DNA from: an uncultured Gemmatimonadota bacterium
Lineage (GTDB): Bacteria > Gemmatimonadota > Gemmatimonadetes > Palauibacterales > Palauibacteraceae
Assembly: GCA_964518305.1 (NCBI GenBank)
Contig: CAZFDK010000005.1
Location: forward strand, 8,826-72,825
Length of the DNA stretch: 64,000 bases
Reading direction: 5' to 3'
The position numbers and the translations under genes are program-made. A model generated the notes under the pieces. The model had not been told where the DNA came from. It made no database searches and saw nothing but the letters and a program-made list of their open reading frames with translations. This document shows positions 19,411 to 59,765 of this stretch, piece after piece. Positions within the stretch are counted from its first letter, which is position 1, and each line of letters starts with the position of its first letter.

Positions 19411-19430
19411 GCCGACCCACCGGGCCGTCC

Positions 19431-20580: not shown

Positions 20581-23379
<2,799 letters not shown>

Positions 23380-23569: not shown

Positions 23570-23590
23570 GGACTCCGGCGGGGGCTCCGT

Positions 23591-31362: not shown

Positions 31363-31409
31363 GGTTTCCGGCGGTCCCGTGAGCCGGTCGGGCCGCCTCA
31401 GGGGCCGCC

Positions 31410-35352: not shown

Positions 35353-35690
35353 CGCAGCTGTACCCGGTAGCCCACGGCGCGCCGCAGGAGCTCCACGACC
35401 CACTCCTCGGGCGCCCCGGGCTCCTCCCACGAGGGGTCGGGGAAGGGGACCACCACCGGCACGGCGGTGGCCTCCAGCGACCGGCGAAATTCCCCCGCGA
35501 GGCCGTCGAACAGGTCCCGCTGGACGAAGACCACAGCCACGTCGGGCTCGTCCACGAACCGGCGGATGATGTCTTCCGCACCGGCAGGGTCGGTGGCGGG
35601 GCGCACGGGGAGGCCCGCCAGGCGGAAGCCGCGGGCCGTCTGCGGCCGGGCCACGACCCACACCGCCCCCTCGTCGCTCACGGCGTTCAC
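35349..35690 (-). CDS. V-type ATP synthase subunit F
   Basis: ~113 aa from GTG 35690 (GTGA overlap with the subunit C stop). '…VWVVARPQTARGFRLAGLPV…VAVVFVQRDLFD…' matches the F-subunit fold. Confidence 0.7.
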   Translation of the reverse strand: MNAVSDEGAVWVVARPQTARGFRLAGLPVRPATDPAGAEDIIRRFVDEPDVAVVFVQRDLFDGLAGEFRRSLEATAVPVVVPFPDPSWEEPGAPEEWVVELLRRAVGYRVQLR

Positions 35691-37311: not shown

Positions 37312-37318
37312 CCCGGCC

Positions 37319-37546
37319 TCAGCCTCCTCCGCCCTGGAGCATGATCACCAGGGCGACCACGAATCCCAGAACGACCATGGTCTCCGGAATGGCGATCATG
37401 AGGATCGCTGTAGTGCTCAGCTCGGGCTTCTCCGCGAGCGTGGCAGCCACCGAGGAGCCGATCTTGGATTGTGCCCACGCCGTGGCCAGAGCGGGAATCC
37501 CCACTGCCAGCGCGGCGCTCAGCGTCAGCCAGAAGACGTCGTCCAT
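37319..37546 (-). CDS. ntpK: V-type ATP synthase proteolipid subunit K (c)
   Basis: 75 aa, two TM helices, conserved carboxylate in helix 2 (…IAIPETMVVLGF…). Confidence 0.85.
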   Translation of the reverse strand: MDDVFWLTLSAALAVGIPALATAWAQSKIGSSVAATLAEKPELSTTAILMIAIPETMVVLGFVVALVIMLQGGGG

Positions 37547-37570
37547 GGCATGCGTCCTTTCAGGGGTTCA

Positions 37571-39460
37571 TCAGGTGTCCAGGGAAGCGCCGGCCCGGTC
37601 CTCGGGCCGCACGTGCCGGAAGGGGCGATATTGCTCGCCGCCGGGGCTGTAGAACTTGTCGAAGAACTCGACGTAGTGGAGCCGGAGGCCGTGGATCGTG
37701 GGGCCGAAGATACCCAGGGCGAAGTTCACGAGGTGAAAGAGCAGGCCGAAGAGGGCCCCCACCAGGGCGCTTCCCACCGTGCCCACAAGCTGGTTCGCCA
37801 CCACGGCCATGACGACCGAGGCCGTTCCCAGGGCCATGATTCGGGCGTAGGAGAGGATGTTGCCCAGGGCGGAGATGAGCTCCACCGGCGCCAGCACCCC
37901 CTCCACGATGATCAGCACGGGAAAAGCCACCAGCAGCGCCACGACGGCGGGGGTGAAGAAGGCGCCCGGCAGGACCCGGACGGCGGCCAGCAGCGCGACC
38001 ACCACCAGCACGACCATCAGGGCGTACAGCCCCCGTCCCGCGGCCTCACGCGGCTCGTTCCGCACGGAAGAGACGGCGCCGAGGACGAAGCCGATGATCA
38101 CGTGCACGGTGCCCAGGGCCACCGCCAGGCCCAGGAAGGGAATCAGCGCCTCCTCGCGGTTGAAGATCAGGGGCTCCAGATCGAAGAGACGGTGTCCCAG
38201 GTCCCCGAGGAATTCGCCGTACACGAGTCCGAAGACCACCGTGAAGGCGGCGCACGCCCCGGCGACCTCGGAGACCGATCGGCGGGTGGAGTCGGGGTCC
38301 GAGCGGTGGTGCAGTCCGGCCGCCAGCGCGCCGAGGGCCAGCCCGTACGCGACATCTCCGAGGATGATCCCGAAGAACATGGGGAAGAAGACGGCCACAT
38401 AGGGCGTAGGATCGATGCTGCCGTAGCTCGGGAGCGGGAGCATCCGGGTGAGGGCCTCGAAGGGACGGAAGAGGCGCGGGTTGGAGAGCGCCACCGGGGC
38501 CTCCTCGCCCCGCCACTGCTCCGTAGACACTTTTTCCACTGCCGCGGCGGCACCGAAGTCTTCCTCGATCCGCCGGCGCACGTCGTCCAGCTCCTCCTCC
38601 GGAACCCATCCCTCGAGCACGAAGGCCCGCTCCGTCTCGGCGGCCGTGCGCAACGCCTCGATCAGCGCCAGACGATCTCGAACGGCGAGCTGGACGCCAC
38701 GGAGATCGACACCGTGCTCCTCGGCCAGCTCCTGCCGCTCCTGCTCCAGTCGACGAATCTTGTCCCGGAGCTCTGTCCGCCGGTCCCGCATGGCGCCGGT
38801 GGCCTCCTCGAGGGTCGTTCCGGCGGGTAGACGTGTCGGGAGGCCCACCTCCTCGACGCCGGCTCCGGACAGCACCTCGTCGATGGTGTGGGCGGCCCGG
38901 CCCGAGGCACGGAGCAGGGCGGCCCGACCCTCGTCGCGCTCCTCGCCGACTGTGAGCTCGAAGCCCTCGCCGATCCTGTCGTCCAGCGCTTCCCGCAGCC
39001 GCTCCGTATTGCCCGACTCTCCGGTTCGGAGCACCAGAAACCAGCTGCGCACGTCGCCGTCGCCCAGCGACTCCGGGAGCACATCGCCGAAGCGGTGGAA
39101 GAGGTCGAGGAAGCGGTCGAGGTCGACGGCGCGTCGCTCCAAGTCGTGGGCCCGACCGACAAGGTCCTCGGCCCTGCGGCGGAGGCGGCGGGCCAGCTGC
39201 TCCCAGCGCCGGAGGTCGGCGGCGGAGATTGGTTCGGGAACCTCCTCCGACGTCTCCGGCTCCGGCAGGGCTTCCAGCGCCCCCTCGACGTCCTCGAGAG
39301 CCTCCCGCAGACGGATTTCCTCGTCCCGATGGAGGGACTCCGGGACCGGCTGCAGTTCCTCGGCTGACGGTCGGGTCAGGTGAACCGTGCCTGCGTCCTG
39401 GACGATGCCCACCATCTCGGGCAGCCGATTCCGGGGGCCCAGGATCCGAACCCGCGCCAT
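37571..39460 (-). CDS. ntpI: V-type ATP synthase subunit I (a)
   Basis: ~630 aa. Soluble coiled-coil N-half plus a 7-8-TM C-half with conserved Arg (…LRLHYVEFFDKFY…). Start chosen at MARVRILG (39460); the ORF track gives 39472. Confidence 0.85.
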   Translation of the reverse strand: MARVRILGPRNRLPEMVGIVQDAGTVHLTRPSAEELQPVPESLHRDEEIRLREALEDVEGALEALPEPETSEEVPEPISAADLRRWEQLARRLRRRAEDLVGRAHDLERRAVDLDRFLDLFHRFGDVLPESLGDGDVRSWFLVLRTGESGNTERLREALDDRIGEGFELTVGEERDEGRAALLRASGRAAHTIDEVLSGAGVEEVGLPTRLPAGTTLEEATGAMRDRRTELRDKIRRLEQERQELAEEHGVDLRGVQLAVRDRLALIEALRTAAETERAFVLEGWVPEEELDDVRRRIEEDFGAAAAVEKVSTEQWRGEEAPVALSNPRLFRPFEALTRMLPLPSYGSIDPTPYVAVFFPMFFGIILGDVAYGLALGALAAGLHHRSDPDSTRRSVSEVAGACAAFTVVFGLVYGEFLGDLGHRLFDLEPLIFNREEALIPFLGLAVALGTVHVIIGFVLGAVSSVRNEPREAAGRGLYALMVVLVVVALLAAVRVLPGAFFTPAVVALLVAFPVLIIVEGVLAPVELISALGNILSYARIMALGTASVVMAVVANQLVGTVGSALVGALFGLLFHLVNFALGIFGPTIHGLRLHYVEFFDKFYSPGGEQYRPFRHVRPEDRAGASLDT

Positions 39461-39468
39461 GGTCAGGA

Positions 39469-39816
39469 TCACGGCGCCTCCTCCACCAGCTTCCGAACGA
39501 CGGCCCGGGCGAGCTGATCCACCGTCTCCTCGGTGGCCTGGCGATAGCGATGCGCGGTACGCTCCGCCCGTCGGCGTATCTCCTCGATGGCTTCGCGGTG
39601 CTCCGTCCGGACCCGCTCCCGGATATCGGTCAGCTCCTCCTCCAGCCGGGCGGCCTCGTCGCGGTGGAGGGCCCGCGCCTGCTCCCGCGCCGACTCGATT
39701 ACGTCCGCAGCGCGTCGGCGCGCCTCGGCGCGCGAGGCTTCCAGCTCGGACTCGGCCGCCAGCAGGCGGGCTAGGTCGCTGTCGACGGCCATATCCCGCT
39801 CGATGTCAGGACTCAT
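39469..39816 (-). CDS. V-type ATP synthase subunit G/H (peripheral stalk, coiled-coil)
   Basis: 115-aa Ala/Arg/Glu-rich coiled coil at the first position of the operon, matching the Thermus/Enterococcus order G-I-K-E-C-F-A-B-D. Confidence 0.6.
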   Translation of the reverse strand: MSPDIERDMAVDSDLARLLAAESELEASRAEARRRAADVIESAREQARALHRDEAARLEEELTDIRERVRTEHREAIEEIRRRAERTAHRYRQATEETVDQLARAVVRKLVEEAP

Positions 39817-40052: not shown

Positions 40053-40625
40053 TTACATCGAGGAGCCCGCCGTGTCGGACATGGCACCGTGAGGGGCCGT
40101 GCTGGTGCCGCTGTCCGCCGCCGAGCCGTGCAGCTCCGTGGCGTCGGAGGAGCCCATGCCGGCGCGCTGCATGGCGCTGTCGGCCGCCGCGGTGTTGCCC
40201 AGGGCTCGATGGGCCATGAAGACGCCGAACCAGGCGGCACGGACGTCCGGGTGCTCAGAGGTCAGGGACTCGAACTGCTCGAGGGCGGCGCGGTAGTTCC
40301 CGGCACGGTACGCCGCGTTGCCGCTGTCAAGGGCGGACTGAATCTCCGGCGGAAGGTTCGAGCGCGGTGACGCGCCGTTCCCTTCCCGCATGCCCATGCC
40401 ACTCGCTCCGGGCGGGGTCTGACGGCGCGAGTTCCGGACGCTGTCCACCGCCTCGTTGAGCCCGCGTCCACCGATGGAGAAGCGGCTCTCGCCGCTCCCA
40501 GCCCCGTTTCCGCCGCTTTCGCCGCCGCACCCGGCGACGACGGGCAGGAGGGCCACGAGCAGGGCCACCGTCATGGCCGCTACGCGCGGTCGCGCGCCGT
40601 CGAACGCCTCTCTGGCGCGCCCCAT
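40053..40625 (-). CDS. Lipoprotein with a TPR-like helical repeat
   Basis: Lipobox '…MTVALLVALLPVVAGCGG'. 'ALDSGNAAYRAGNYRAALEQFESLTSEHPDVRAAWFGVFMAHRALGNTAAADSAMQRA' is a TPR-like pair. Lies downstream of the cytochrome cluster on the same strand. Confidence 0.55.
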   Translation of the reverse strand: MGRAREAFDGARPRVAAMTVALLVALLPVVAGCGGESGGNGAGSGESRFSIGGRGLNEAVDSVRNSRRQTPPGASGMGMREGNGASPRSNLPPEIQSALDSGNAAYRAGNYRAALEQFESLTSEHPDVRAAWFGVFMAHRALGNTAAADSAMQRAGMGSSDATELHGSAADSGTSTAPHGAMSDTAGSSM

Positions 40626-40627
40626 CG

Positions 40628-42433
40628 TCACGAGCCACCTCCCAGGGGATCGGAGAGGTGGCAAGCGAGGCACACCTGCCGGTTACGGTCGGCGTACCGC
40701 TGGGCGTCGAAGTCCGGTCCGTGGGGGCTCACGCTGAACGCTCCCGTGGTCGAATGGCACTGGATGCAGTCTCTCTGTCGATGGCAACTGGCGCAGCTCT
40801 CGAGCGACTGGCGGGCCGCCTGACCGTGGCGCAGGAGCCAGAGGGGCTGGGCGTCGTGGAATCCCGGTCCGATGCGCCCGCTGCTCCCCATGCCGGTCTG
40901 CTGGTGACACTCCCGGCAGAACGCTCCCGTGCTGTGGCACGTGGAGCATTCCATGCGGTTCCCGTACGCCGCGGAGGCGTGACGGGCCATGAAGTTCTCC
41001 GGGTGGAAGCCGCCGGGCTCGCTCCGCGCCGCGGGGCCGGGCCACGGCGCCCCGTCCGAATCGGCCGACGAGCTCGTGTCCGCGGCCGTGGTGTCGGTGT
41101 GGGTCGTGTCCGCGGCCTGGGCCCGCGCGCCCGCCGTCGACCCCCCGGCGGCCGGGCCTCCCTCCGCGCCAGCCGTGGCGGCGGGCGAGGCGACCGCCGG
41201 AAGCTCCCGGCGCTGCCCGGCTTCACGGGCATCGGCCACACCGCCGGCGTGACAGTCGGTGCAGGAGGCCTCCGTGTGGCAGGAGGTGCAATTGCCGGGG
41301 TCGGCGGCTGCCAGGTCGCCGTGGGCCGTGGGGAAATCGGGCACGCGGTGCGAGGCCGGGGCGCGGCGCTCCACCGCGACCCCGGGGGCGTCCGTGCGAC
41401 GTCCGTCCGGCAGCCGGGCCACGGTGGAGGACGGCGCGTCGCGGTGGCAGGTCGTGCAGCTCTGCCGCGTGTGACAGGTGGAGCACTCGCCGGGTCGAGC
41501 CCGCTCGCCGTGGACGTCGAGCCATCCCTCCGACTCGTGTGTCTCCGGCGTCGGATAGCGGGCGGCGAGGTCGGGGAGTTCCATCCCGGCCGGTGCGGCG
41601 GGCATCGAGGCCACCGTCTCGCGCTCCGCCCCCTCCACGTGGCAGCTGGTGCAGCGCTCCTGAGTGTGGCAGGTCTGGCAGGTAGCCAGGGAGCGCTCCG
41701 CGGACTCGCCGTGAGTTTCGATCAGAAAGCCGCCCCGGTCGTGGTCGGCGGGTTCCGGCAGGGAGGCGATGCGACCGCGGTCGAATCCGGTCTCGGCCAG
41801 GGGACGGTGGCAGGTGGCGCAGCTGGCGTCCACGTAGTGCTTCGTCGCCTCGTGCTCGTGGCAGCTCAGGCACCGGTTCGGGACGGCCCGACCGGTGACG
41901 GCCATGCGTGTCGCCCCCGCCGGTGTGTGGCACGACTCGCAGGAGGCGGCCTCCTCTCCTTCCCGCTCCATCTCGGCGGCGTGGTCGGCGTGGTCGTAGA
42001 TCAGGTTGCCCGGCCGACGCTCCGGTCCCGACCACTCCACCCGCTCCGCCTGCTCGCCGTCGTGGCAGTTGGCACAGGACTCCGGATTCGGGTAGAAGGT
42101 CGCCGTGTCCCCCCGGCTGATGCCCCCGTGACAGCCCGTGCACAGCGCGAAGAGCCCGGCATGGTCCTCGTGCGGGAAGGCCTCCGAGGTGTCGGCGCTG
42201 ACCGTATCGGGCCCGCCGGCCCGGGCCGGCGGGCGCCTCTCCGTCCCACTCGGGGACGCCGCGGCCGCGGACGCTGCGTCGCTTCCGGCGTGCGCCACCG
42301 ATGCCACGAGGGCGGCGACCCCCAGCGCCAGAGCTCCGGCCGAGAGACGCACGGAGATTCGGTCCCGCACCTTCACCGGCGGCTCCCGTCCAGGGCTGGG
42401 TCGCCACCCAGGTCCAGGCGGAGAGTGCTCCAT
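40628..42433 (-). CDS. Large multiheme c-type cytochrome (~16 CxxCH motifs), secreted
   Basis: CxxCH: CTGCH, CANCH, CESCH, CLSCH, CATCH, CQTCH, CTSCH, CSTCH, CTTCH, CTSCH, CTDCH, CSTCH, CRECH, CASCH, CIQCH, CLACH. Signal peptide '…RISVRLSAGALALGVAALVASVAHA'. ATG start at 42433 (60-nt overlap with the porin gene); an alternative GTG at 42376 overlaps the porin stop as GTGA. Confidence 0.85.
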   Translation of the reverse strand: MEHSPPGPGWRPSPGREPPVKVRDRISVRLSAGALALGVAALVASVAHAGSDAASAAAASPSGTERRPPARAGGPDTVSADTSEAFPHEDHAGLFALCTGCHGGISRGDTATFYPNPESCANCHDGEQAERVEWSGPERRPGNLIYDHADHAAEMEREGEEAASCESCHTPAGATRMAVTGRAVPNRCLSCHEHEATKHYVDASCATCHRPLAETGFDRGRIASLPEPADHDRGGFLIETHGESAERSLATCQTCHTQERCTSCHVEGAERETVASMPAAPAGMELPDLAARYPTPETHESEGWLDVHGERARPGECSTCHTRQSCTTCHRDAPSSTVARLPDGRRTDAPGVAVERRAPASHRVPDFPTAHGDLAAADPGNCTSCHTEASCTDCHAGGVADAREAGQRRELPAVASPAATAGAEGGPAAGGSTAGARAQAADTTHTDTTAADTSSSADSDGAPWPGPAARSEPGGFHPENFMARHASAAYGNRMECSTCHSTGAFCRECHQQTGMGSSGRIGPGFHDAQPLWLLRHGQAARQSLESCASCHRQRDCIQCHSTTGAFSVSPHGPDFDAQRYADRNRQVCLACHLSDPLGGGS

Positions 42434-43908
42434 CCGCGGAGCTGGTTCCAGTCGACGGCGCTCGGGCGGTTGTCGAAGTACTGTCGGTACATCGAGACGC
42501 CCGTGTCCAGCCGCACGTCGTCCAGGGGACGGATCTCCAGCGACGCGGTGCCCCCGGCCAGCATGCCCTCTCCGATGCGGTACTCCTCGATCTGCTGACT
42601 CGCCGTCAGGCTCATCCGCAGCGCCACCAGGTCGAAGGGCTGCCACCGTCCGCCCAGCTCGCCGGAGCTGAGAAAGGCCCCGGCTCCCCGCTCGACCCGG
42701 TAGCGGCCGCGGAGCCGGAGATCCGCGGTCGGCGACCACTGTCCGGAGGCGGAGGCGAACCACGCGTTGTCCTCCACGGGGCCCAGGCTGGGCTCCGTAT
42801 CGGTGTCATCGTAAGTCCGTGCACCGCCGCTGATCTCCAGGCCGAGCTCCGGCGTGACCGACCAGGAGGCGCCGAGCTGCCCTTCGTGATAGGCCACCGG
42901 GCTGAACAAGCCCCATATGGTCCAGAGCTCGAAATACGGCATGTAGCGGCGCCCGCGTGCCTCGAGGACCAGGTCACCGGTCACCGGCACCCTGGCCGAG
43001 AGCCGAGACTTGCCGATTTTGCCCCGGGCGAAGTCGTAGTCCATGGAGCCCGTGAGGCGGATCGGATTCAGGAGGGACGTCCGGCCGTCCAGCGAGGCCC
43101 TCTCCGAGAGCAGCGCGGCCCGATTGGACAGGATCTCCCTCTGGTAGCGGGCCGTGAGCGAGCTCCCGGCTCCGGCTTCCGCGGTGGCGGCGCCCCCGAT
43201 GAGCCAGGCCTCCCTGTCCGGCAGGAAATCCTCCACGCCCTGCAGGGCGTCGTTCCGCGGATCGTGCAGTCCGCGGGCGAGGCTCCGGCCGCCGTAGACT
43301 TCGAGCGAGAAGCCGCCCAGGGGCTCCGCCATGACGCTGGCCCCGTCGTAGCTGGCGAACCCCAGGCCGGCGCGCGTGCGCTGGCGCCCGAGTCGCACGC
43401 GCAGGTTCGGGCGATTGTACTGGGCGTACGCGACGATGGCGTCGAACGAGTCGTCGCTCTGGGGCCAGGTGAAGTCGCCCCCCACGTCCTGCCTGCCCCG
43501 CACGTGAACCGTCGCCGAGAGACCCTCCAGCCCGAAGCCCCAGGCGGTGAACCGGAGGTCCTGGGTGGTGTGGAGCGCGTGCTCGGTAGGGGTGGAGCGA
43601 TAGAAGGTGCACCGGCCGGCGGTGCACGTCACCGGCCGCCCCTGGTAGGAGAGTCCGCCCCCGGGAAGCTCCGTCACCTGGCTTCGCGCCACCGTGTCCT
43701 GGACGATGGGCCGTACCTCCACGGTCCGGGCCGTGGCCCAGGCCTGCCCCCGGAAGTCCTGCGCGTCCGCGGCTCCGGGGAGTAGTGAAAGCGCCAGCAC
43801 CGCCAGGAGCAGGGAGGGTGCGGCCGACCGCGGCGTCGCCGTCGACCCGGTCGTGGCGCGAGGATGGCCGTCCGGGGGCAAGTGGCGGTCGGCGGAGTGT
43901 GCTGTCAC
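42373..43908 (-). CDS. Outer-membrane beta-barrel protein, candidate porin of a porin-cytochrome (MtrB/OmbB/PioB-like) complex
   Basis: 511 aa. Signal peptide (…LLLAVLALSLLPGAADAQD). Long alternating beta-strand sequence rich in G/S/T/Y/R with C-terminal aromatic strands. Embedded between multiheme cytochrome genes with 4-nt overlaps. Confidence 0.65.
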   Translation of the reverse strand: MTAHSADRHLPPDGHPRATTGSTATPRSAAPSLLLAVLALSLLPGAADAQDFRGQAWATARTVEVRPIVQDTVARSQVTELPGGGLSYQGRPVTCTAGRCTFYRSTPTEHALHTTQDLRFTAWGFGLEGLSATVHVRGRQDVGGDFTWPQSDDSFDAIVAYAQYNRPNLRVRLGRQRTRAGLGFASYDGASVMAEPLGGFSLEVYGGRSLARGLHDPRNDALQGVEDFLPDREAWLIGGAATAEAGAGSSLTARYQREILSNRAALLSERASLDGRTSLLNPIRLTGSMDYDFARGKIGKSRLSARVPVTGDLVLEARGRRYMPYFELWTIWGLFSPVAYHEGQLGASWSVTPELGLEISGGARTYDDTDTEPSLGPVEDNAWFASASGQWSPTADLRLRGRYRVERGAGAFLSSGELGGRWQPFDLVALRMSLTASQQIEEYRIGEGMLAGGTASLEIRPLDDVRLDTGVSMYRQYFDNRPSAVDWNQLRGWSTLRLDLGGDPALDGSRR

Positions 43909-44645
43909 GGCGTGTCACCTCCTTCGACCGGCGGCATCAGGTGACAGCGGGCGCATCGCTCGCGGGGCCGGTGGTCCGCCTGGTCCTGGTGGCAGGCGAG
44001 ACAGACGTTCCGCGGGCTACGGTCCATCGTTCTCGTGTTCACCGGCAGGGAGGTGGCCTCGTGGCAGCCGCTGCCAGTGCAGGTGGCGTGGACGGCGAGC
44101 GTGTGGCTCTCCTCCGGGGCTTCCCGGTGACAGGATGCGCAGTCGACCTCGGCTCCGTGGTGCTCCTCGTGGCACCCGGTGCACTGGACCGAGGCGGCCG
44201 AGAGCTCCGTCCCCCCTGTATGGCACTCGGCGCACTCGATGCTCTCGTGCGATGCGTGGCCGAAGGGGAGATCCCTTCCGCGAACCGTGTCCACGGACAT
44301 CGGCAGGTCCCTGGTCACCGGGTACGATCCCGCCGCCTCGAGCTCCGAGCGCTCGTGGCAGTTCGCGCAGGGCTCGGCGGTGGATCCGGAGTGGTGGCAG
44401 GAGCGGCATCCGCGGATCGAGGTGACCGTGAGCGTGCCGTGCCCCTCCTCGGTGGAGTGGCAGTCCGTGCACGCCACGTCCGTGTGCCCGGCGTGCCGGA
44501 AGGGAACCGTGTCCCCGTCGGCGACGAACGTCGTATCGCCGGCACCTGCGTCCTCCTGGGCCGCGGCGGTGCCCGGGAGGAGCGCCGCCGCAGCGAGGAC
44601 GGTCAGGAGATAGGGGAGCGCCCCCCCGCTTCCGAAATGACGCAC
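43905..44645 (-). CDS. Periplasmic multiheme c-type cytochrome (8 CxxCH; OmaB/MtrA-like position)
   Basis: Signal peptide MRHFGSGGALPYLLTVLAAAALLPGTAAAQ. CTDCH, CRSCH, CANCH, CAECH, CTGCH, CASCH, CLACH, CARCH. 246 aa, ~1 heme per 28 aa. Confidence 0.85.
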   Translation of the reverse strand: MRHFGSGGALPYLLTVLAAAALLPGTAAAQEDAGAGDTTFVADGDTVPFRHAGHTDVACTDCHSTEEGHGTLTVTSIRGCRSCHHSGSTAEPCANCHERSELEAAGSYPVTRDLPMSVDTVRGRDLPFGHASHESIECAECHTGGTELSAASVQCTGCHEEHHGAEVDCASCHREAPEESHTLAVHATCTGSGCHEATSLPVNTRTMDRSPRNVCLACHQDQADHRPRERCARCHLMPPVEGGDTP

Positions 44646-44670
44646 GTCACCGATCGCCGCTCCCGCGAAG

Positions 44671-46245
44671 TTACTGGGAGCTGCTGACGTTTACGGTGGG
44701 GGGAGCCTCCATCTGGGGCTCGAGGCTCAGGTTCACACCCAGCCCGTACTGCTCGTTCACCGCGGTGATGGACGCCCGGAGCAGCGCCTCCAGCAGGAAG
44801 GGGTTGTGGACGCCGTTGCCGCTTCCCTTGTGGGAGCCGAAGTGGGTGGGGTTCGATCCCACGGTGAAGTCACCCCACTGCAGCCGGTCGTCGGTGTGAG
44901 CCACCTGCGCGTTCCACAGCGCGCCCTCCGCGATTGTGAAGGTGCTGTCGGCCGGGTTGATCTCGGCCTCGCCCGAGTCGGCCAGCACCTGCGTCAGGAG
45001 CCCGGAGTCGTCCTCCTCGAGGACGTGGTCGCCGTCGGTGTCCGTCCACAGCTGGTCCATGAGGTCGTTGATCCTGTTCTTCGACGTCACGAACAGGTTG
45101 CGTGCCGTCTCGGCGGAGCCGTGGCAGCCGCTCGTCGCGCACGCGTCAAAGCTCTGCTCCTGGATCGTGCAGTCCTCCTTGGGCAGACCCTGGTCGTCCA
45201 GGCAGGGCGTGGCCTCGAAGGTGTGGCCCACGGCCTCGACCTGGAAGTTGCCCTCTTCGTCTGTGATGGTGCGCTGCGCGACGTGGCAGGTGGCGCAGAG
45301 CTCGGGGTTGCCCTCGGAGCCGTGCGACGAAGCGAAGGTCCCGCTCAGGTCCGTGTTCGGGGGAATCCAGCCGACGTCCTCGCCGATTACCAGGTTGCCC
45401 TGGAAGGCGTGCGGGCCGTGCAGGTTCGGCGACGTCAGGCCCGGCGTGCCGCGCCGCGAGTGGCAGCGCACGCAGAGGTTCTCCTCGCTCGGAACGTCGA
45501 TCGGTGCCCGGAGCTGCGCGACATTGTCAGAGCCGTGCGGGTCGTGGCAGGTGGCGCAGGTGATGGACGAGAGCTGATCATCGTCCTTGCCGGCGAAGTT
45601 GGCGTCCACGCCGAACTGGTTCTGCATGGCGGCCTCGCCCTCGTGGCAGTCCAGGCAGGAGCCGCTGACGAAGCCGAAGTCCTTCACGGAGGCGATGCCG
45701 TGGGCGGACTGGGCCCACTGGTTGGTGAAGGGATGGTGGGCGCCGGAGTGGCACTCACCGCAGCCGGTCTCGAGATCCACACCGGCCTGAATGCTGGCCA
45801 GGGGCTGGTTGCCATCCGGGTTCTCGACGTGGCTCTGGCCGGGCCCGTGGCAGGATTCGCACTGGACGTCGTGGTAGCGCTCGGAGTCGACGCCATCGTA
45901 GCCGGCCGCGCCTTCGAAGGAGTTGCCCCGCTCGTTGACGGTGTGGCAGCCCTCGCAGAAGTCCTGCACGCCGTCGCTCTGCTGCAGACCTTCCCATGCC
46001 CCGGCGTGTCCGGACCCCTCCCACTGGCTCTGGGTGCCGGAGTGACAGTTGCCGCAGACGGTGACCTTGGCGTCCTGCTGGCTGTAACCCAGGAAGCCCT
46101 CGGCCGCGGAGGCGGGCTGCTCGAAGAGGGGACGTTCCTGGAAGACGACCTTCTCGTCCACGCAGCCGGTCACCGCGAAGGCCGCGGTCAGCGGGAGGAG
46201 AAGCAGGGCGACTTTCAGGGTTCGCTTTGCGTTCTCCGGAGTCAT
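44671..46245 (-). CDS. Lipoprotein multiheme c-type cytochrome (OmcB-like outer-membrane cytochrome candidate)
   Basis: Start at internal ATG 46245 (MTPENAKRTLKVALLLLPLTAAFAVTGC = lipoprotein signal) with SD GGAGGGAG. CxxCH: CGNCH, CEGCH, CESCH, CGECH, CLDCH, CATCH, CVRCH, CATCH, plus CATSGCH (Cx4CH). Confidence 0.85.
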   Translation of the reverse strand: MTPENAKRTLKVALLLLPLTAAFAVTGCVDEKVVFQERPLFEQPASAAEGFLGYSQQDAKVTVCGNCHSGTQSQWEGSGHAGAWEGLQQSDGVQDFCEGCHTVNERGNSFEGAAGYDGVDSERYHDVQCESCHGPGQSHVENPDGNQPLASIQAGVDLETGCGECHSGAHHPFTNQWAQSAHGIASVKDFGFVSGSCLDCHEGEAAMQNQFGVDANFAGKDDDQLSSITCATCHDPHGSDNVAQLRAPIDVPSEENLCVRCHSRRGTPGLTSPNLHGPHAFQGNLVIGEDVGWIPPNTDLSGTFASSHGSEGNPELCATCHVAQRTITDEEGNFQVEAVGHTFEATPCLDDQGLPKEDCTIQEQSFDACATSGCHGSAETARNLFVTSKNRINDLMDQLWTDTDGDHVLEEDDSGLLTQVLADSGEAEINPADSTFTIAEGALWNAQVAHTDDRLQWGDFTVGSNPTHFGSHKGSGNGVHNPFLLEALLRASITAVNEQYGLGVNLSLEPQMEAPPTVNVSSSQ

Positions 46246-46798
46246 GACCTGCTCCCTCCTCTGTATTCCGTCTCGCGGCGTCCCGTACGGTGTCGCGTCC
46301 GGAACGCCCTCTCTCCCTCCTGGCCACCGTGCGCAGGGTACCGGAACCGCGACCCGACGGACACGATCCCGGCTCACAGTGTGGGCGGAAGCGAAGCTAA
46401 GCAAGCCCTCTGTCCTGCTTCAACCGACTCCCGTCGCGCCGGCCGGAACGGAGGCTACCTCGCGCTCCCGTCGCCGGGAGCCGGCCGGAACCCTGCGCGC
46501 CACCAACGATAGCCCGATCGGCGCGCGTGTCATGTCGGGAGCCCCCGGTGCGGGTTCGTGGGAAGACTCCCCACGTCGACGAAGGCCCTTGCCGGACCCC
46601 CACCGTCCGCTGAGGGGAGGCTTCCCACACGCCTGCGGCGGATTACACCACACCTGCCTCCGTGCGGGCCCCGACAGACGCTTTACGTCGACGTCTCTAG
46701 CTTGCGGTGCGAGCTTGAGGACGGGCCGGATCCGACGCCCGGCGCGCCCCCCGAGCGGCGCGAGCCGCCGGAACGTCCATCATCCCCGGGAGGCACCG

Positions 46799-47983
46799 AT
46801 GTTCGTCCCCAACGAGTACGGCTGGAAGAAGGACGAGACCCTGGCCGAGAACCTGGAGCGCCAGGGCATCAACCGCCGGGAGTTCCTGACATACTGCGGA
46901 GAGATGGGCGTGGTCCTCGGGGTCGGGAGCGCCATGGGGCCCACCATCATGCAGTCCCTCTCCGACCAGCAGCGGCCCAGCGTCATCTGGCTTCAGCTGC
47001 AGGAGTGCACGGGATGCGTGGAGAGCGTCCTCCGCACGGAGTCACCGACCATCGGGGACCTGATCCTGAACAAGCTGTCGCTGGACTATCAGCACACCCT
47101 GATGGCAGCCGCCGGACACCGGGCCGAGGAGGTTCTCCAGCGGACCATGGAGGAGAAGGAGGGAGAGTACCTCCTCGTGGTCACCGGATCGGTGCCGATG
47201 AACGACGGCGGCGTCTACACCACCGTGGGAGGGCGGACTGCACACGACGTGCTCGTGGAGGCCGCCGACGGTGCCGCCGGTGTGATCGCCGTGGGCGCTT
47301 GCGCCCATTACGGAAGCGTCCAGGCCGCTGATCCCAACCCCACGGGCGCCGTCCGGACGGACGAGATCGTCACCGACCAGCCCGTGGTGAACATCGCCGG
47401 GTGTCCGCCGATCGCGGACACCGTCACGGCAACGCTGGTCCACTACCTGACCTTCGGGAGCATGCCGAGCCTCGACGGGGAGGGGCGGCCAGAGTTCGCC
47501 TACGGGGCACGGATCCACGACCAGTGTCCGAAGCGCGCCAACTACGACGCCGGGCAGTTCGTCCAGGAGTTCGACGACGAGGGGGCCCGACGGGGCTGGT
47601 GCCTGTACGAGGTCGGGTGCAAGGGGCCCGCGACCTTCTCGCCGTGCCCCATCTTCCAGTGGAACTCCGGCACGGACTGGCCCATCGGGGCCGGTCACCC
47701 GTGCATCGGATGCACGGAGCCGCACTTCTGGGACTCGATGACCCCGTTCTACGAGAGGCTTCCCGGCGTGGCCGGATTCGGGGTCGAGCGCACGGCCGAC
47801 GAGATCGGCCTCGGCCTGGCCGTCGGAGCCGCCGCGGGCGTCGGAGCTCACGCGGTCGCTACGGGCGTGCAACGCGTGCGTGATAAGAGAAAGGGACGAG
47901 AGCTGCCGGTGGCGGACGAAGACGGCGGTGAGAGCTCGCCCGGAGCCGAGGGTGGCGAATCGAACGCGGAACAGAGGGAGTGA
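46799..47983 (+). CDS. hyaA: [NiFe]-hydrogenase small subunit, Tat-exported, with C-terminal membrane anchor (group 1-like uptake hydrogenase)
   Basis: Twin-arginine signal 'INRREFLTYCGEMGVVLGVGSAMG'. Fe-S cluster Cys motifs (ECTGC…, GCPP…, CPIFQW…HPCIGC). C-terminal hydrophobic helix. Confidence 0.92.
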   Translation: MFVPNEYGWKKDETLAENLERQGINRREFLTYCGEMGVVLGVGSAMGPTIMQSLSDQQRPSVIWLQLQECTGCVESVLRTESPTIGDLILNKLSLDYQHTLMAAAGHRAEEVLQRTMEEKEGEYLLVVTGSVPMNDGGVYTTVGGRTAHDVLVEAADGAAGVIAVGACAHYGSVQAADPNPTGAVRTDEIVTDQPVVNIAGCPPIADTVTATLVHYLTFGSMPSLDGEGRPEFAYGARIHDQCPKRANYDAGQFVQEFDDEGARRGWCLYEVGCKGPATFSPCPIFQWNSGTDWPIGAGHPCIGCTEPHFWDSMTPFYERLPGVAGFGVERTADEIGLGLAVGAAAGVGAHAVATGVQRVRDKRKGRELPVADEDGGESSPGAEGGESNAEQRE

Positions 47984-47986
47984 CCC

Positions 47987-49825
47987 ATGCCGAACCGAGT
48001 CGTCGTCGACCCGATCACCCGAATCGAGGGGCATCTCCGGATCGAGGCCCAGGAGGAGAACGGGCGGATCCAGGACGCCTGGGCTTCGTCCACCCAGTTC
48101 CGCGGCATCGAGACCATCATGGAGGGGCGGGACCCGCGTGACGCCTGGGCGTTCACCCAGCGGATCTGCGGGGTGTGCACCGTGGTGCACGCCATCGCCT
48201 CCCTCCGCGCCGTGGAGGACGCCCTCGACATACGGATCCCGCCGAACGCCAACCTGATCCGGAACATCGTCCACGGCATCCAGACCATCCAGGACCACGT
48301 GATCCACTTCTATCACCTCCACGCCCTGGACTGGGTGGACGTGATGAGCGCCCTCGAGGCCGATCCGGCGGCGGCAGCCGACCTGGCCGGAAAGGTGTCG
48401 CCCTGGCCGAAGCACTCCCGCAACTACTTTCGCGAGATCAAGGGGCGCCTGGAGACGTTCGCGGAGAGCGGACAGCTGGGGATCTTCGCGAACGCCTACT
48501 GGGGGCACGACGCCTACAAGCTGCCCCCGGCCGCCAACCTCATGGCCGTGGCCCACTACCTGGAGGCGCTGGACTGGCAGCGGGATGTCATTCGGATCCA
48601 CACGATCTTCGGGGGCAAGAACCCGCACCCGAACTTCGTGGTGGGCGGGATGGCTTCTGCCATCAACCTGGACGACACGGCCACCATCAACGCCGAGAGC
48701 CTCACGGACATTCACGACATGATCGGCCGCGCCCGGCGCTTCGTGGAGCAGGTGTACTGGCCCGACCTGCTGACCATCGCCTCCTTCTACAAGGAGTGGG
48801 CCGCGATCGGTGACGGGGTGCCCAACTACCTGGCCTGCGGCGAGTTTCCCGAGAACGACGTCCGGGACATCGACTCGCTCTACTTTCCCCGGGGCATCGT
48901 CCTCGACAACGACCTGTCCACGGTGCACGAGTACGACCCCTCTCTGGTGAAGGAGTATGTGGACAGCTCCTGGTACAGCTACGAGGACGGTCCGGGCACG
49001 GGGCTCCACCCATACGACGGCGAGACGACGCCGAACTACACGGGGCCGGAACCGCCCTACGACTACCTGCAGGACGAGGAGAAATACACCTGGATGAAGG
49101 CTCCCCGCTACGAGGGGCGGCCCATGGAGGTCGGCCCGCTGGCGAGGATGCTCGTCGGGTACGCCTCCGGCCACGAGGACATCCAGGACGTCGTCGACGA
49201 CGCCCTCGGTCGGCTGGACGTCGGTCCCGAGGCCCTGTTCTCCACCCTGGGCCGGACGGCTGCGCGCGGTGCCGAGACCGTGCTCCTCGCCCGGAAGATG
49301 GAGGACTGGTACGACCGGCTGGTGCAGCGCATCCGGGGCGGCGACACCCGGACCTTCAACGGCGAGAAGTGGGAGCCGGACACGTGGCCGGAGTCGGCCC
49401 GCGGGTACGGCTACTGTGACGCCGCCCGCGGATCGCTGGGCCACTGGGTACGGATCGAGAACCAGGAGATCTCCCGCTACCAGTGCGTGGTCCCCAGCAC
49501 CTGGAACTGCTCCCCGCGAGACGCCGAGGGGCAGATGGGCCCCTACGAGGCCTCGCTGGTGGACAATCATCCCCTGGCCGATGCCGAGGAGCCGGTGGAG
49601 CTGCTGCGCACGATCCACTCCTTCGACCCCTGCATGGCCTGCGGCGCCCACGTCCTGGACGACCGCGGGAACGTGGTCACCAAGGTGCGGGTGGACCACG
49701 GCACCGGCCTGGGCTTCGGGAGTCCCCCGGACGTGCCCGAGGACGATGTCGGGCGGCCGTCGGACGACGACGCTACCCCGGCCGCGGCCACGCCGGACGC
49801 CTCGGAGGGGGGAGGTGGGTCGTGA
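47987..49825 (+). CDS. hyaB: [NiFe]-hydrogenase large subunit
   Basis: N-terminal 'RIEGH' and 'RICGVCT' Ni-Fe ligands. C-terminal 'DPCMACGAH' followed by a cleavable extension (VLDDRGNVV…). Confidence 0.95.
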   Translation: MPNRVVVDPITRIEGHLRIEAQEENGRIQDAWASSTQFRGIETIMEGRDPRDAWAFTQRICGVCTVVHAIASLRAVEDALDIRIPPNANLIRNIVHGIQTIQDHVIHFYHLHALDWVDVMSALEADPAAAADLAGKVSPWPKHSRNYFREIKGRLETFAESGQLGIFANAYWGHDAYKLPPAANLMAVAHYLEALDWQRDVIRIHTIFGGKNPHPNFVVGGMASAINLDDTATINAESLTDIHDMIGRARRFVEQVYWPDLLTIASFYKEWAAIGDGVPNYLACGEFPENDVRDIDSLYFPRGIVLDNDLSTVHEYDPSLVKEYVDSSWYSYEDGPGTGLHPYDGETTPNYTGPEPPYDYLQDEEKYTWMKAPRYEGRPMEVGPLARMLVGYASGHEDIQDVVDDALGRLDVGPEALFSTLGRTAARGAETVLLARKMEDWYDRLVQRIRGGDTRTFNGEKWEPDTWPESARGYGYCDAARGSLGHWVRIENQEISRYQCVVPSTWNCSPRDAEGQMGPYEASLVDNHPLADAEEPVELLRTIHSFDPCMACGAHVLDDRGNVVTKVRVDHGTGLGFGSPPDVPEDDVGRPSDDDATPAAATPDASEGGGGS

Positions 49826-50601
49826 CTGCTCAGCGGCAGCAGGAGGAAGCCGGCCGTCGCGCCACGCACGAGCCCGAGCGGACGGAGCAGCCCGGCCTGG
49901 GCCCCATCCCCCGTCCGCCGGAGGGCGATTACGAGTGGGTCTACCTGTGGCACTGGCCGATCCGCGCCATGCACTGGGTGGCCGCCGTGGCCATCGTGGC
50001 CCTCGTCGTCACGGGATTCTACATCGGAGCGCCCTATTTCATGACCACCGGCGAGCCGGCGAACCAGTACCTGATGGGGTGGATGCGATTCGTCCACTTC
50101 GCGGCCGCAGGCCTGCTGGTGGCCACCGGGATCGTGCGGGCCTACTGGCTCTTCGTCGGCAACAAGTTCGAGAGCTGGCGAGCCCTGTTCCCGTTCCGGC
50201 GGGAGGACTGGGCCAACATGTGGAAGATCGTGAAGCACTACATGCTGATCGGGGAGGAGGAGCCGGAGTACATGGGCCACAATCCGGTCCAGCAGATTTC
50301 CTATACCGGCCTGTACGCCGTGACCGTCGTGATGGTGCTCACAGGCTTCGCCATGTACGGCCAGTCGAATCCCGACGGCTTCTTCTACGCCACCTTCTCC
50401 TGGGTCAACGGGCTCCTGGGCGGCGTGCAGTACACCCGCTTCGTGCATCACGTCCTGACCTGGGTCTTTCTCATCTTCATTCCGATTCACGTCTACCTGA
50501 CCATCCGGGCCGAGATCACGGAATCCACCGGCACGGTCTCGTCCATGGTGAGCGGCGGGCGGTTCCTGCCGCGGGGCGAGGAGTTCGTCGATGAGGAGTG
50601 A
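49822..50601 (+). CDS. hyaC: Ni/Fe-hydrogenase b-type cytochrome subunit
   Basis: GTG start overlapping the hyaB stop (GTGA). Four TM helices with conserved His (…WHWPIRAMHWV…FVHFAAAG…VHHVLTW…). Confidence 0.85.
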   Translation: MTAQRQQEEAGRRATHEPERTEQPGLGPIPRPPEGDYEWVYLWHWPIRAMHWVAAVAIVALVVTGFYIGAPYFMTTGEPANQYLMGWMRFVHFAAAGLLVATGIVRAYWLFVGNKFESWRALFPFRREDWANMWKIVKHYMLIGEEEPEYMGHNPVQQISYTGLYAVTVVMVLTGFAMYGQSNPDGFFYATFSWVNGLLGGVQYTRFVHHVLTWVFLIFIPIHVYLTIRAEITESTGTVSSMVSGGRFLPRGEEFVDEE

Positions 50602-57275: not shown

Positions 57276-58232
57276 TCAGACGGCCAGTCCCGCGGCGAAG
57301 AGAGTCGCGTACGCGACGGCGAGCTGTCCCGCCTGCGGCGTGAGAGGCAGGAGATGCTTCCAGCGGTCGGCCCTCCTGACTCTCCGGAAGATCACGACGG
57401 CGTACGGAGCCGTCAGCAGGGGGAGGAGCACGGCGACGTCGTGACCGGAGCGCGGCACGAACCAGACGGGAACGGCGTACGCCAGGGCCGTGAGGACGCC
57501 CATCTCCACCTCCGTCCAGTCCCGGCCGATGATCACGGCCAGCGTCCGCTCCCCCTTCTCGCGATCGAAGCGAAGATCACGGATGTTGTCGATGAGGAGG
57601 ATGTTCGTGATCAGCGCGGCCATGGGCAGGCCGGCGGCCACCGACTCCAGCGTCAGCGCGTCTCCGGGTACGCCCGTCGGGAAACCCGTCGCCAGGTTCG
57701 ACGCGGCCTGGACGTAGTAGGTGCCGGAGACCGAGACGATGCCGAAGAATAGGAAGAAGAGCGGGTCGCCGAGTCCGCGGTCGCCGAGCCGGAGCGGATC
57801 GGACGAGTACGCCAGGCTGGCGCCGGCGCTGACGACCCCGAGGGCGAGCGCCGGCAGGCCACCGATCCGGACCAGGTAGGCGCCCGGGACCGCCGCCAGC
57901 AGGTAGCATCCGGCGGTGGCCCGGGCCAGGAGACGGAGGTCGACGACGCCCGCCTCCAGGGCACGGACCAGGAGCGGGTGCTCACGATCGTCGGGATGGC
58001 GGCGGAGGTTGTGGTAGTTGTCCGCGATCACTCCGCCGAGCTGGATCAGCCATCCGGCGGCCAGGGCCGCGGTCGCTGCCCACGGGGCGAAGACGCCGTC
58101 GTGGAGGGCGAGGCCCGCGGCCACGACGACCGGTGCCAGCGCGGTGGGAAGAGTGTGGCGCGGATAGACGAGCATCCGCACCCAGACGTCGCGCCGGGTG
58201 GGGACCTCGGTTGACGGGGAGGGGGCCGACAT
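57276..58232 (-). CDS. UbiA-family aromatic prenyltransferase (MenA-like)
   Basis: 318 aa, 8-9 TM. Asp-rich motif region 'IADNYHNLRRHPDDREHP' and second motif '…DNIRDLRFDREKGERT' consistent with UbiA/MenA. Confidence 0.65.
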   Translation of the reverse strand: MSAPSPSTEVPTRRDVWVRMLVYPRHTLPTALAPVVVAAGLALHDGVFAPWAATAALAAGWLIQLGGVIADNYHNLRRHPDDREHPLLVRALEAGVVDLRLLARATAGCYLLAAVPGAYLVRIGGLPALALGVVSAGASLAYSSDPLRLGDRGLGDPLFFLFFGIVSVSGTYYVQAASNLATGFPTGVPGDALTLESVAAGLPMAALITNILLIDNIRDLRFDREKGERTLAVIIGRDWTEVEMGVLTALAYAVPVWFVPRSGHDVAVLLPLLTAPYAVVIFRRVRRADRWKHLLPLTPQAGQLAVAYATLFAAGLAV

Positions 58233-58367
58233 GCAGGGGTTTCTCGTGGTCGGGGACGGAACCGACGGGGTCGAAGCTGGATATCATGTGGAGAGACTCC
58301 GCGGGACGCCAGCGTTCGTGCCGGCTACCGTGGATTGGTCAGGTCAGCGCGGGAGGAGAGAGTAGCG

Positions 58368-59765
58368 ATGAGCATGTCCTGGCTACCGGGGCCCGGCGAG
58401 GCAGTCCTGATGCTGCAGCATATGCAGCAGCCGGGCCCGCACACCCGCCCCGGCGAGGAGATGGGCGCCCCGCTTCCCGGCGGGATCGCCGAGGTGCTGC
58501 GATTCTTCTTCTCCGGCGTCCCGCAGTGGATCCAGATCGGCGGGGCGATTCTCGGCTTCATCGTGGCCGTATGGCTGGCCGTCTTCCTGTGGAACCGTCG
58601 TCTCGAGATCTGGGAGTGGATCCGCACCCGTCCGGCGATGGTCCAGTCCGCGATGGGGCTGGCCGTGGTGATCTTCATCACCGGCGCGGCCTGGTTCGGC
58701 CAGGAGGCGTGGAACTACACGCAGCACGAGAATGCCTTCTGCGTCTCCTGCCACGTGATGGGGGGCTCCTTCGAGCGCTTCACGCAGAGCGAGCACTCTG
58801 AGCTCGAGTGCCACGACTGTCACCAGCAGCCCATCAGCGCCAGCATGCGGCAGGTCTACCTCTGGGTGGTGGAGCGCCCCGAGGAGATCGGGGGGCACGC
58901 GCCGGTCGCGAACGAGGTCTGTGCGGAGTGCCACATCCAGTCGGATCCGGACAGCACCTGGCAGCGCATCGCGGCCACCGCCGGCCACCGGATCCACCTG
59001 GAGTCGGATTCCTCCGCGCTGGAGGACGTGATGTGCGTTACCTGCCACGGGGAGGAGGTGCACCGATTCGTGCCGGCCGACCAGACCTGCGCCCAGTCGG
59101 ACTGCCACGCCGAGAGCGACACCGAGATCGTACTGGGCAAGATGGCCTCCTCCCAGACCACCTTCCACTGCCTGAGCTGCCACGAATACACGGCTCCGGC
59201 CCCGGAGCAGGCCTCGCTGGACACCGCCCTGACGGCGCTCAGCCCCTCCCGCACGCAGTGCCTGGCGTGTCACGAGATGCAGGAGGAACTGGAGACGCTC
59301 CAGGTGGGCGAGGACCCCCACGGCCCCGGGTGCGGCCAGTGCCACAACCCGCACTCACAGGAGCAGCCGGATGTGGCCTTCGCCACCTGTACGGGCGCCG
59401 GATGCCACGCGAGCCCCGACACCCTGACGCCCTTCCACCGGGACCTGGCCGGGGCGAAGCTCGAGGACTGCGCCGCCTGCCACGAGGCCCATACGTGGGA
59501 GGTGGAGGGAAGCAACTGCGGTGCGTGCCACGCGGACATCGCCGGCGCCGAGCCGGGGGAGCCGCTTCCGGGCGACCATCCGGAGATGAATGTCGGTGAC
59601 ACGGCGGTGGCTGCATCGGGACTCCCGGACGGCCACCCCTCAGTGAGGGCGTCGGGCGACCTCCCCGCCGTGTCGACCGTCCGGGGCGAGCTTCCCGAGG
59701 GGCATCCGTCGATGCCGCCGAGGTGGCGGTCGCTGCCCTCCGACCACCCGTCCGTGCAACCTTAA
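58368..59765 (+). CDS. Membrane-anchored multiheme c-type cytochrome with C-terminal (LPxGHPS)x4 repeats
   Basis: Start ATG 58368 after GGGAGGAGAG. N-terminal TM (GGAILGFIVAVWLAVFLW) plus a second TM. CxxCH: CVSCH, CHDCH, CAECH, CVTCH, CLSCH, CLACH, CGQCH, CAACH, CGACH, plus CAQSDCH and CTGAGCH (Cx4CH). C-terminal tail 'LPGDHPEM…LPDGHPSV…LPEGHPSM…LPSDHPSV'. Confidence 0.85.
   Translation: MSMSWLPGPGEAVLMLQHMQQPGPHTRPGEEMGAPLPGGIAEVLRFFFSGVPQWIQIGGAILGFIVAVWLAVFLWNRRLEIWEWIRTRPAMVQSAMGLAVVIFITGAAWFGQEAWNYTQHENAFCVSCHVMGGSFERFTQSEHSELECHDCHQQPISASMRQVYLWVVERPEEIGGHAPVANEVCAECHIQSDPDSTWQRIAATAGHRIHLESDSSALEDVMCVTCHGEEVHRFVPADQTCAQSDCHAESDTEIVLGKMASSQTTFHCLSCHEYTAPAPEQASLDTALTALSPSRTQCLACHEMQEELETLQVGEDPHGPGCGQCHNPHSQEQPDVAFATCTGAGCHASPDTLTPFHRDLAGAKLEDCAACHEAHTWEVEGSNCGACHADIAGAEPGEPLPGDHPEMNVGDTAVAASGLPDGHPSVRASGDLPAVSTVRGELPEGHPSMPPRWRSLPSDHPSVQP

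Follow-up and report, generated by a model that had tools for sequence, protein, structure and literature searches.

A predicted porin-cytochrome electron conduit with an unclassified outer-membrane barrel in Gemmatimonadota

In the porin-cytochrome (Pcc) systems of Geobacter, a porin-like protein, a periplasmic eight-haem cytochrome and an outer-membrane lipoprotein multihaem cytochrome are encoded together (Shi et al. 2014, PMC4245776), and Gemmatimonadetes are not among the phyla listed in the pcc survey of that year (PMC4245776). The MtrCAB system of Shewanella (structure 6r2q), encoded in the order mtrC-A-B, combines the 26-stranded barrel MtrB with the ten-haem wire MtrA and a decahaem surface cytochrome of the MtrC/OmcA kind. 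Here we analyse a stretch of 64,000 nucleotides (the window) from an uncultured member of the Palauibacteraceae, phylum Gemmatimonadota (contig CAZFDK010000005.1, positions 8,826 to 72,825 of the forward strand), in which multihaem cytochrome genes are clustered around a gene for an outer-membrane beta-barrel. The cluster probably forms a conduit from the menaquinone pool through the barrel to the cell surface, fed by H2 in this organism. An electron conduit of the porin-cytochrome type had been proposed in a first-pass annotation of this DNA, and the proposal is supported by the fold of the barrel, by phylum-wide synteny and by a quinol dehydrogenase fused or adjacent to the periplasmic cytochrome, the function itself being predicted from sequence. 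The system is most likely a functional equivalent of MtrCAB or Geobacter Pcc that lies outside the Mtr family.

From here on the genes are referred to by the letters A to E, with BN for a sixth, more distant gene:

44671..46245, minus strand: A, nonahaem lipoprotein cytochrome c of 524 residues; AGGAGG 5' of the ATG, lipobox ...AVTG|C, eight CxxCH motifs and one CX4CH (CATSGCH)
43905..44645, minus strand: B, periplasmic nine-haem cytochrome of 246 residues; signal peptide, eight CxxCH and one CX4CH (CTGSGCH)
42373..43908, minus strand: C, predicted outer-membrane beta-barrel of 511 residues; no haem motif, about 22-24 strands, no plug domain
40628..42376, minus strand: D, 16-haem cytochrome of 582 residues; Sec signal peptide without a lipobox cysteine, 16 CxxCH
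40053..40631, minus strand: E, small lipoprotein of about 192 residues resembling tetratricopeptide repeat (TPR) proteins; lipobox VAG|C, TPR matches below threshold
58335..59765, plus strand: BN, membrane-anchored multihaem cytochrome of the NapC/NirT/NrfH type; at most 476 residues (start uncertain), nine CxxCH and two CX4CH

All five open reading frames (ORFs) first described between 40053 and 46245 are present and co-directional; start and stop codons overlap as GTGA at the B/C, C/D and D/E junctions, and A and B are separated by 25 nt. The initial descriptions of A as a lipoprotein with about nine haems and of D as a secreted cytochrome with about 16 both hold, and that of B as an eight-haem protein has to be raised to nine. 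The boundaries drawn at the outset also need to be widened, as the system extends to BN. In A, B and D, a scan with Pfam and NCBIfam models recognises multihaem domains of a generic kind and nothing more specific. No terminator was found in a scan of 39.5-47 kb, and the one promoter-like site, in the spacer between A and the divergent hyaA, is uninformative in a genome of this composition (the guanine plus cytosine content of the window is about 71%).

The AlphaFold2 model of C, built with 44 homologues, has a mean predicted local distance difference test score (pLDDT) of 82 and a predicted template modelling score of 0.74, and consists almost entirely of beta-hairpins from residue ~51, directly after the signal peptide, to residue ~501. 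This confident model of about 22-24 strands upholds the original reading of the ~500-residue protein as an outer-membrane barrel and speaks against a soluble protein. The first strand follows the signal peptide immediately, so that a plug domain is missing, whereas the 22-24-strand barrels that the model resembles usually contain a plug or a passenger; judging by the model, a plug-less barrel of this size would be an open hole unless filled. C has no Pfam or NCBIfam family at an E-value of 0.1 or below, and its profile finds no PDB chain at an E-value of 10 or below, including 6r2q_B. A comparison with the MtrB/PioB family, suggested earlier as a check, gives no match and places C outside that family. 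A sequence search returned 336 relatives, all unnamed and without a Pfam domain, those with a named source being from Candidatus Palauibacterales and Longimicrobiales, and the profile reached 553 clusters among 1.84 billion representative proteins. A divergent subfamily at ~35-45% identity is found mainly in Gemmatimonadota, with one record from Eiseniibacteriota, and its cluster members are named only "hypothetical protein". By sequence, the family thus appears to be unclassified and nearly confined to Gemmatimonadota. An invariant cysteine pair, C95 and C100, flanks a short N-terminal hairpin (VTCTAGRCTF) and may form a disulphide-stapled loop or latch.

In D, the 16 CxxCH motifs and another 17 histidines are kept without exception by 44 homologues, and the sequence has five repeats of the form H-x(10-11)-CxxCH-x(4-5)-CxxCH. 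The invariant non-motif histidines of A, B and D come to about one spare residue per haem, as expected for bis-histidine electron-transfer haems. D matches Pfam Cytochrome_C7, Mtrc-MtrF_II-IV_dom and Paired_CXXCH_1. Its best PDB profile match is the 16-haem HmcA (2e84; E-value 1.4e-8), followed by c7-like domains and OmcA/MtrF; the HmcA match is local (~120 of 479 profile positions) and does not amount to full-length homology, so we do not identify D as an HmcA, and no Hmc-type membrane subunit occurs among the annotated neighbours of the cluster, in which HmcB-F were not searched for specifically. D is predicted to be a haem wire inserted in barrel C. It, rather than B, is the candidate for the threaded wire because it is constant and translationally coupled to C. 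The 16-haem protein had at first been regarded as an unusual addition to a conduit; it is instead the core, constant partner of the barrel, and the small cytochrome B is the variable part. For E, the lipoprotein half of the original description stands on its lipobox, while the TPR half is backed by matches just under threshold (TPR_16 at 30.5 bits against a cut-off of 32.7, E-value 5e-7; TPR_14 at 23.0 against 23.5). A homologue of E lies 3' of D in 67 of 84 loci, and the protein is possibly an assembly or docking factor.

All haem motifs of A, together with the lipobox cysteine and the CX4CH motif, are at least 99% conserved among 70 sequences (the CX4CH in all 70), and there are eight fully conserved non-motif histidines plus one conserved at 94% for the nine haems. 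Against the PDB, the profile of A matches 6qvm with an E-value of 2.4e-16 over 368 positions (78-445 of 457) and 6i5b with 5e-11; weaker matches include octahaem nitrite reductase (8rv0, 4e-7), cytochrome c554, MtrA (2e-4) and hydroxylamine oxidoreductase (HAO, 3e-3). The deposited name of 6qvm is "Multiheme cytochrome cf", which we read as OmhA of Carboxydothermus ferrireducens; 6i5b we read as OcwA. The homology to this clan thus covers the full haem domain, and Pfam Paired_CXXCH_1 and Mtrc-MtrF_II-IV_dom are matched above their cut-offs. At the cell surface, OmhA and OcwA act as terminal reductases of Fe(III) minerals, and OcwA groups with Gram-negative nonahaem cytochromes (PMC7829351). 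A shares nine haem motifs with OcwA. OmhA and OcwA come from monoderms, which have neither outer membrane nor barrel, whereas A is a diderm lipoprotein encoded with a barrel. It carries a lipid-anchoring signal in every homologue: the lipobox cysteine (Cys28) is 100% conserved and is followed by V-D-E-K in the window and by the pattern V/T-D/E-E in the family. In Bacteroidota, of the Fibrobacteres-Chlorobi-Bacteroidetes (FCB) lineage that neighbours Gemmatimonadota, acidic residues after the lipid-modified cysteine are a signal for surface export; by analogy the pattern in A is a lead towards surface export, though not a test of it. We predict from its sequence that A is a surface-exposed terminal oxidoreductase anchored in the outer membrane. 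A also has an invariant pair of non-haem cysteines, C348 and C359.

The haem motifs of B are at least 98% conserved in 63 sequences, its CX4CH motif in all of them, and 11 non-motif histidines are invariant for the nine haems; conservation on this scale, as in A and D, shows that the motifs are not accidental. By sequence B resembles class III (c3/c7) cytochromes, with a match to Pfam Cytochrom_CIII (E-value 5e-12) and Desulfovibrio cytochromes c3 as its best PDB sequences. What lies between A and C differs among Gemmatimonadota. Synteny was determined with tblastn searches using the window proteins and a census of ORFs with haem motifs, in the best 80 of the 297 species genomes in which a scan of one genome per species had found barrel relatives. 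The intervening gene is absent in ~17 of the 80 loci and short, like B of the window, in ~10; in at least 47 it encodes a protein of 560-620 residues with 17 CxxCH, in which a transmembrane helix at the N-terminus precedes ...DNDFCLSCHLM... and which also contains CX4CH motifs. CxxCHxM is the characteristic motif of NrfH/NapC quinol dehydrogenases. B is 40-47% identical to residues ~380-600, the C-terminal half, of these 17-CxxCH proteins, which occur in most Gemmatimonadota, and BN is 40-43% identical over ~320 residues to their N-terminal halves.

BN has the hallmarks of the NapC/NirT/NrfH family, namely an N-terminal membrane anchor (two hydrophobic segments), a first haem motif of the CxxCHxM type (CVSCHVM) and a match to Pfam Cytochrom_NNT (PF03264) at 25.0 bits against a cut-off of 24.1. 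The NrfH N-terminus model TIGR03153 also matches, with an E-value of 1.6e-15, although below its equivalog cut-off (57 against 134 bits). In contrast to NrfH, NapC and CymA, which share these features, BN has 11 haem motifs rather than four or five, and elsewhere it is fused to a further nine-haem periplasmic domain. From these similarities BN is predicted to correspond to the N-terminal half of the 17-CxxCH protein, here encoded separately, and to act as a quinol dehydrogenase feeding the conduit. Other split forms are seen with BN divergent beside A (loci L025 and L006), with the genes for B and BN side by side (L060) and with BN alone (L039 and L040). Through the fusion of BN and B elsewhere in the phylum the conduit has a physical link to the quinone pool, and we regard this as the strongest new argument, at the level of sequence, for a complete pathway from the inner membrane to the surface. 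Directly 3' of BN, at 59893-61110 (plus strand), is a gene for a beta-propeller protein with YncE-like or cytochrome-D1-like repeats; the outer-membrane cytochrome clusters of Desulfovibrio ferrophilus likewise carry beta-propeller proteins (PMC5815863).

The 80 best barrel-carrying genomes are all metagenome-assembled genomes (MAGs) of Gemmatimonadota, from Palauibacterales-like, Longimicrobiales and Gemmatimonadales lineages. Essentially all of their loci have the order A-[variable]-C-D-E, with A homologues of 8-9 CxxCH and, in nearly every complete locus, a D of 16 CxxCH, so that the phylogenetic profiling proposed for the unit shows the gene order to be kept across the Gemmatimonadota loci inspected. 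All 80 close loci, and both divergent loci inspected, have multihaem cytochromes on the flanks of C; in one of the divergent loci there are further multihaem genes, NapC/NirT-like and fused to cytochrome b. Many related loci contain another two multihaem genes as a pair a few kb 3' of A-E, with 9+9 haems in L015, L024, L033, L037, L038 and L054 and with 10-13 haems in L047, L051, L069, L076, L081 and L084; these pairs may be additional electron-transfer modules. The Palauibacterales-like MAG CAZSKS01 (L006, L025) has two paralogous A-E clusters, with barrels 83% and 46% identical to C of the window, and in both BN is encoded divergently upstream of A.

Like generic Pcc conduits, the cluster encodes an outer-membrane barrel together with a Sec-exported multihaem cytochrome and a lipoprotein multihaem cytochrome. 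It has the same three types of part as Geobacter Pcc (OmaB-OmbB-OmcB) and Ext systems, and B and OmaB are close in haem count; it differs from them in gene order and in having the invariant 16-haem D and the TPR-like lipoprotein E in addition. Geobacter decahaem models give weak matches below threshold (the GSU2203 family at 39 bits against a cut-off of 325). From MtrCAB it differs in several respects. C has no sequence relation to MtrB/PioB (no match to PF11854) and about 22-24 strands instead of 26, the wire D has 16 haems instead of the ten of MtrA, the surface cytochrome is a nonahaem of the OcwA/OmhA type instead of a decahaem, the order is A-B-C-D with 9, 9 and 16 haems around the barrel, and in most Gemmatimonadota a quinol dehydrogenase is fused to the periplasmic cytochrome. 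Given these haem counts and this order, and with the DmsE/MtrA model TIGR03508 reaching 57.5 bits against a cut-off of 192, the cluster does not belong to the MtrCAB type. The earlier remark that the gene order is unlike those of Mtr and Pcc is thus borne out, the sequence here being lipoprotein, inner-membrane/periplasmic protein, barrel, wire, TPR-like protein. The cluster DFE_0461-0465 of D. ferrophilus was also considered as the same system and rejected, as it uses NHL beta-propeller proteins and not a beta-barrel (PMC5815863). Matches of FeGenie to the DFE_0461-0465 models are widespread in marine Gemmatimonadota MAGs (PMC11316326) and may correspond to the cluster described here.

Divergent from A, across 553 bp (46246-46798), the window encodes a membrane-bound [NiFe] uptake hydrogenase, and a menaquinone biosynthesis gene lies beside BN:

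46799..50601, plus strand: hyaABC, membrane-bound [NiFe] uptake hydrogenase
46799-47983, plus strand: HyaA, small subunit; TIGR00391 (hydA) at 442 bits against a cut-off of 179.5
47987-49825, plus strand: HyaB, large subunit; NF007550 with an E-value of 5e-187, below the equivalog cut-off (623 against 1101 bits); its L002 orthologue has PF00374
49822-50601, plus strand: HyaC, cytochrome b; Ni_hydr_CYTB (PF01292) with an E-value of 7e-31
57276..58232, minus strand: MenA-like 1,4-dihydroxy-2-naphthoate prenyltransferase; UbiA Pfam E-value 6e-18, NF004751 E-value 1e-57, below the equivalog cut-off

With small, large and cytochrome b subunits the hydrogenase has the composition of group 1 membrane-bound uptake enzymes. 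Maturation genes (hycI, hypA/B and further hyp genes) follow hyaABC up to ~54.9 kb, and the same set is found in the close orthologue L002. The same adjacency of hydrogenase and cluster is present in L002/L005, and four other species lineages have it in both orientations (L001/L008, L003/L055, L062 and L070). It is never combined with the fused form of BN and B (0 of 34 loci against 4 of 23; Fisher p ~0.02), which is no more than a hint, as the test ignores shared ancestry and some loci are mis-binned by the thresholds. The donor in this organism is probably H2, and the position of the MenA-like gene suggests that menaquinone supply is co-located with the quinol dehydrogenase. The varied neighbours of the cluster, among them hydrogenase and Rnf, point to a portable module that is coupled to different donors in different lineages; L004 (1-5407), for example, has the cluster beside an Rnf complex and ApbE.

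From what is directly seen, namely the genes, their motifs and conservation, the barrel fold, the synteny and the fusion of BN and B elsewhere, we infer a path in which the position of D inside the barrel, the surface exposure of A, the outward direction and the identity of substrate and acceptor are predictions. Periplasmic HyaAB would oxidise H2 and HyaC would pass the electrons to menaquinone. BN would oxidise menaquinol at the outer face of the inner membrane, and electrons would then move through the periplasmic nine-haem B to the 16-haem D, which, co-translated with C and seated within its plug-less barrel of about 22-24 strands, would carry them across the outer membrane. At the cell surface they would reach the lipid-anchored nonahaem A, which would pass them to an acceptor that is insoluble or cannot enter the cell (oxides of Fe(III) or Mn(IV), humics or a partner cell, for example). 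E may aid assembly or docking of the complex. The GTGA overlap of C and D, together with the constant number of 16 haems, supports this path. Several observations weigh against it. About 17 of the 80 loci lack B and have no BN nearby. The AlphaFold2 model of D (44 homologues) has a pLDDT of 59.6 and gave no match with Foldseek against the PDB, so that a rod shape and a fit within the barrel lack support from it. A could face the periplasm, the clan of OcwA and OmhA is related to octahaem nitrite reductases (8rv0, as above), and OcwA also reduces soluble N-oxides in vitro. The hydrogenase adjoins the cluster in 5 of 80 species loci and is absent from the other 75, which makes H2 at most one of several donors. 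Proteins of the NapC/NirT/CymA type are reversible and do not fix the direction of flow, and all members are known from sequence alone, in genomes that are without exception MAGs.

The question of direction leads to the alternative that electrons flow inwards. Their source would be a partner cell, a solid acting like a cathode or extracellular minerals of Fe(II) or Mn(II), and they would go either to quinone by way of B and BN or, on periplasmic carriers, to oxidases or enzymes of denitrification. MtoAB and PioAB use the same parts, the architecture leaving direction open, and proteins of the CymA type have been proposed to run in reverse in iron oxidisers (PMC6295460); FeGenie matches in marine Gemmatimonadota cannot separate oxidation from reduction (PMC11316326), and L004 has a gene for a mono- or dihaem protein of the Cytochrome_CBB3 type after E. 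We nevertheless judge inward flow to be unlikely, because the adjacent uptake hydrogenase feeds the quinone pool and makes a donor-side link more natural, because the closest relatives of A are reductases of Fe(III) minerals, and because the window has no carbon-fixation or Cyc2-type genes. If flow is outwards, the hydrogenase might still bypass quinone by reducing the c3-like B directly, with D, C and A following, as Desulfovibrio hydrogenases do with cytochrome c3 and HmcA. The class III similarity of B, the local match of D to HmcA and the finding that hydrogenase adjacency occurs only in loci without the fused quinol dehydrogenase form (p ~0.02, kinship ignored) would agree with such a route, which we consider very unlikely, since the hydrogenase has a cytochrome b of its own and is thus built to reduce quinone, BN lies within the window at a distance of 12 kb, and the HmcA match covers a small part of the profile.

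Least probable in our assessment is that the cytochromes are a periplasmic enzyme for a soluble substrate (nitrite, hydroxylamine, tetrathionate, sulphite or a compound like dimethyl sulphoxide), with the barrel as a channel for substrate or product or as an unrelated outer-membrane protein. The superfamily of A does include octahaem nitrite reductase and HAO, with the E-values given above, and BN is similar to NrfH, which serves nitrite reductase as quinol dehydrogenase. Yet no NrfA, HAO, MccA, OTR or molybdoenzyme family is found above threshold, and homology to a nitrite, hydroxylamine or sulphite reductase, which the first-pass annotation had named as the finding that would overturn its proposal, is likewise limited to weak PDB matches; a complex of the NrfA/HAO type was rejected on these grounds. 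When the translated sequences of A, B, D and BN were read by eye, without a motif search, no CxxCK came to notice. A plug-less barrel of 22-24 strands would moreover be oversized for small anions, C is coupled to the 16-haem D and never seen without cytochromes, and A has its lipid anchor in every homologue.

The arrangement had been thought to be uncharacterised, and our full-text literature searches agree in finding no description of the cluster in Gemmatimonadota, an absence that is not proof. Gemmatimonadota rank among the most abundant phyla of soils and sediments; most of them are uncultured, and the phylum is taken to live by aerobic or denitrifying heterotrophy. If the proposed conduit between quinone pool and surface is real, the phylum would be among those for which iron and manganese minerals, humics or electrodes serve as electron acceptors or donors. 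For marine Gemmatimonadota MAGs, FeGenie matches to DFE_461-465 and Cyc2 and three MtrABC operons have been reported (PMC11316326), and H2-driven metal respiration has been proposed for Palauibacterales from hydrogenase genes alone (PMC10469786); the conduit would supply the missing component of that proposal. A bolder and doubtful, if possible, extension is that Gemmatimonadota have assembled independently their own hard-wired path of ~45-50 haems, mostly with a single polypeptide in which the quinol dehydrogenase is fused to a haem domain that spans the periplasm and docks on D, with D in a barrel unrelated in sequence to MtrB, PioB or any curated family and with an end of the OcwA/OmhA type, and that extracellular respiration with minerals, humics or partner cells is widespread and overlooked in the phylum and driven by H2 in some lineages. 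The C family and the 16-haem D, unnamed in Pfam and NCBIfam, would be clean phylum-specific markers, and, with the quinol dehydrogenase and periplasmic cytochrome variously fused, split or absent, electron transfer across the periplasm could be studied by comparing these naturally occurring forms.

Other neighbours of the cluster include a V/A-type ATPase operon directly 3' of E (31400-39816, minus strand), with subunits I, K, E, C, F, A and B assigned by comparison with L002, where the arrangement is the same; in L003 a gene for the V-ATPase D subunit lies upstream of the hydrogenase. Operon and hydrogenase may together form an "energy island". In L001 and L003 (~14000-21500) a P-type ATPase gene and an operon for an Mrp/Mnh antiporter come after the cluster. 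Elsewhere in the window, two ORFs of 1047 residues (20491-23634, plus strand) and 632 residues (24297-26195, minus strand) have no Pfam match at an E-value of 1e-5 or below and may be real proteins or shadow ORFs of a high-GC genome, and an ORF at 9801-10442 (minus strand) resembles a single-haem cytochrome c' (Pfam Cytochrom_C_2, E-value 3e-7).

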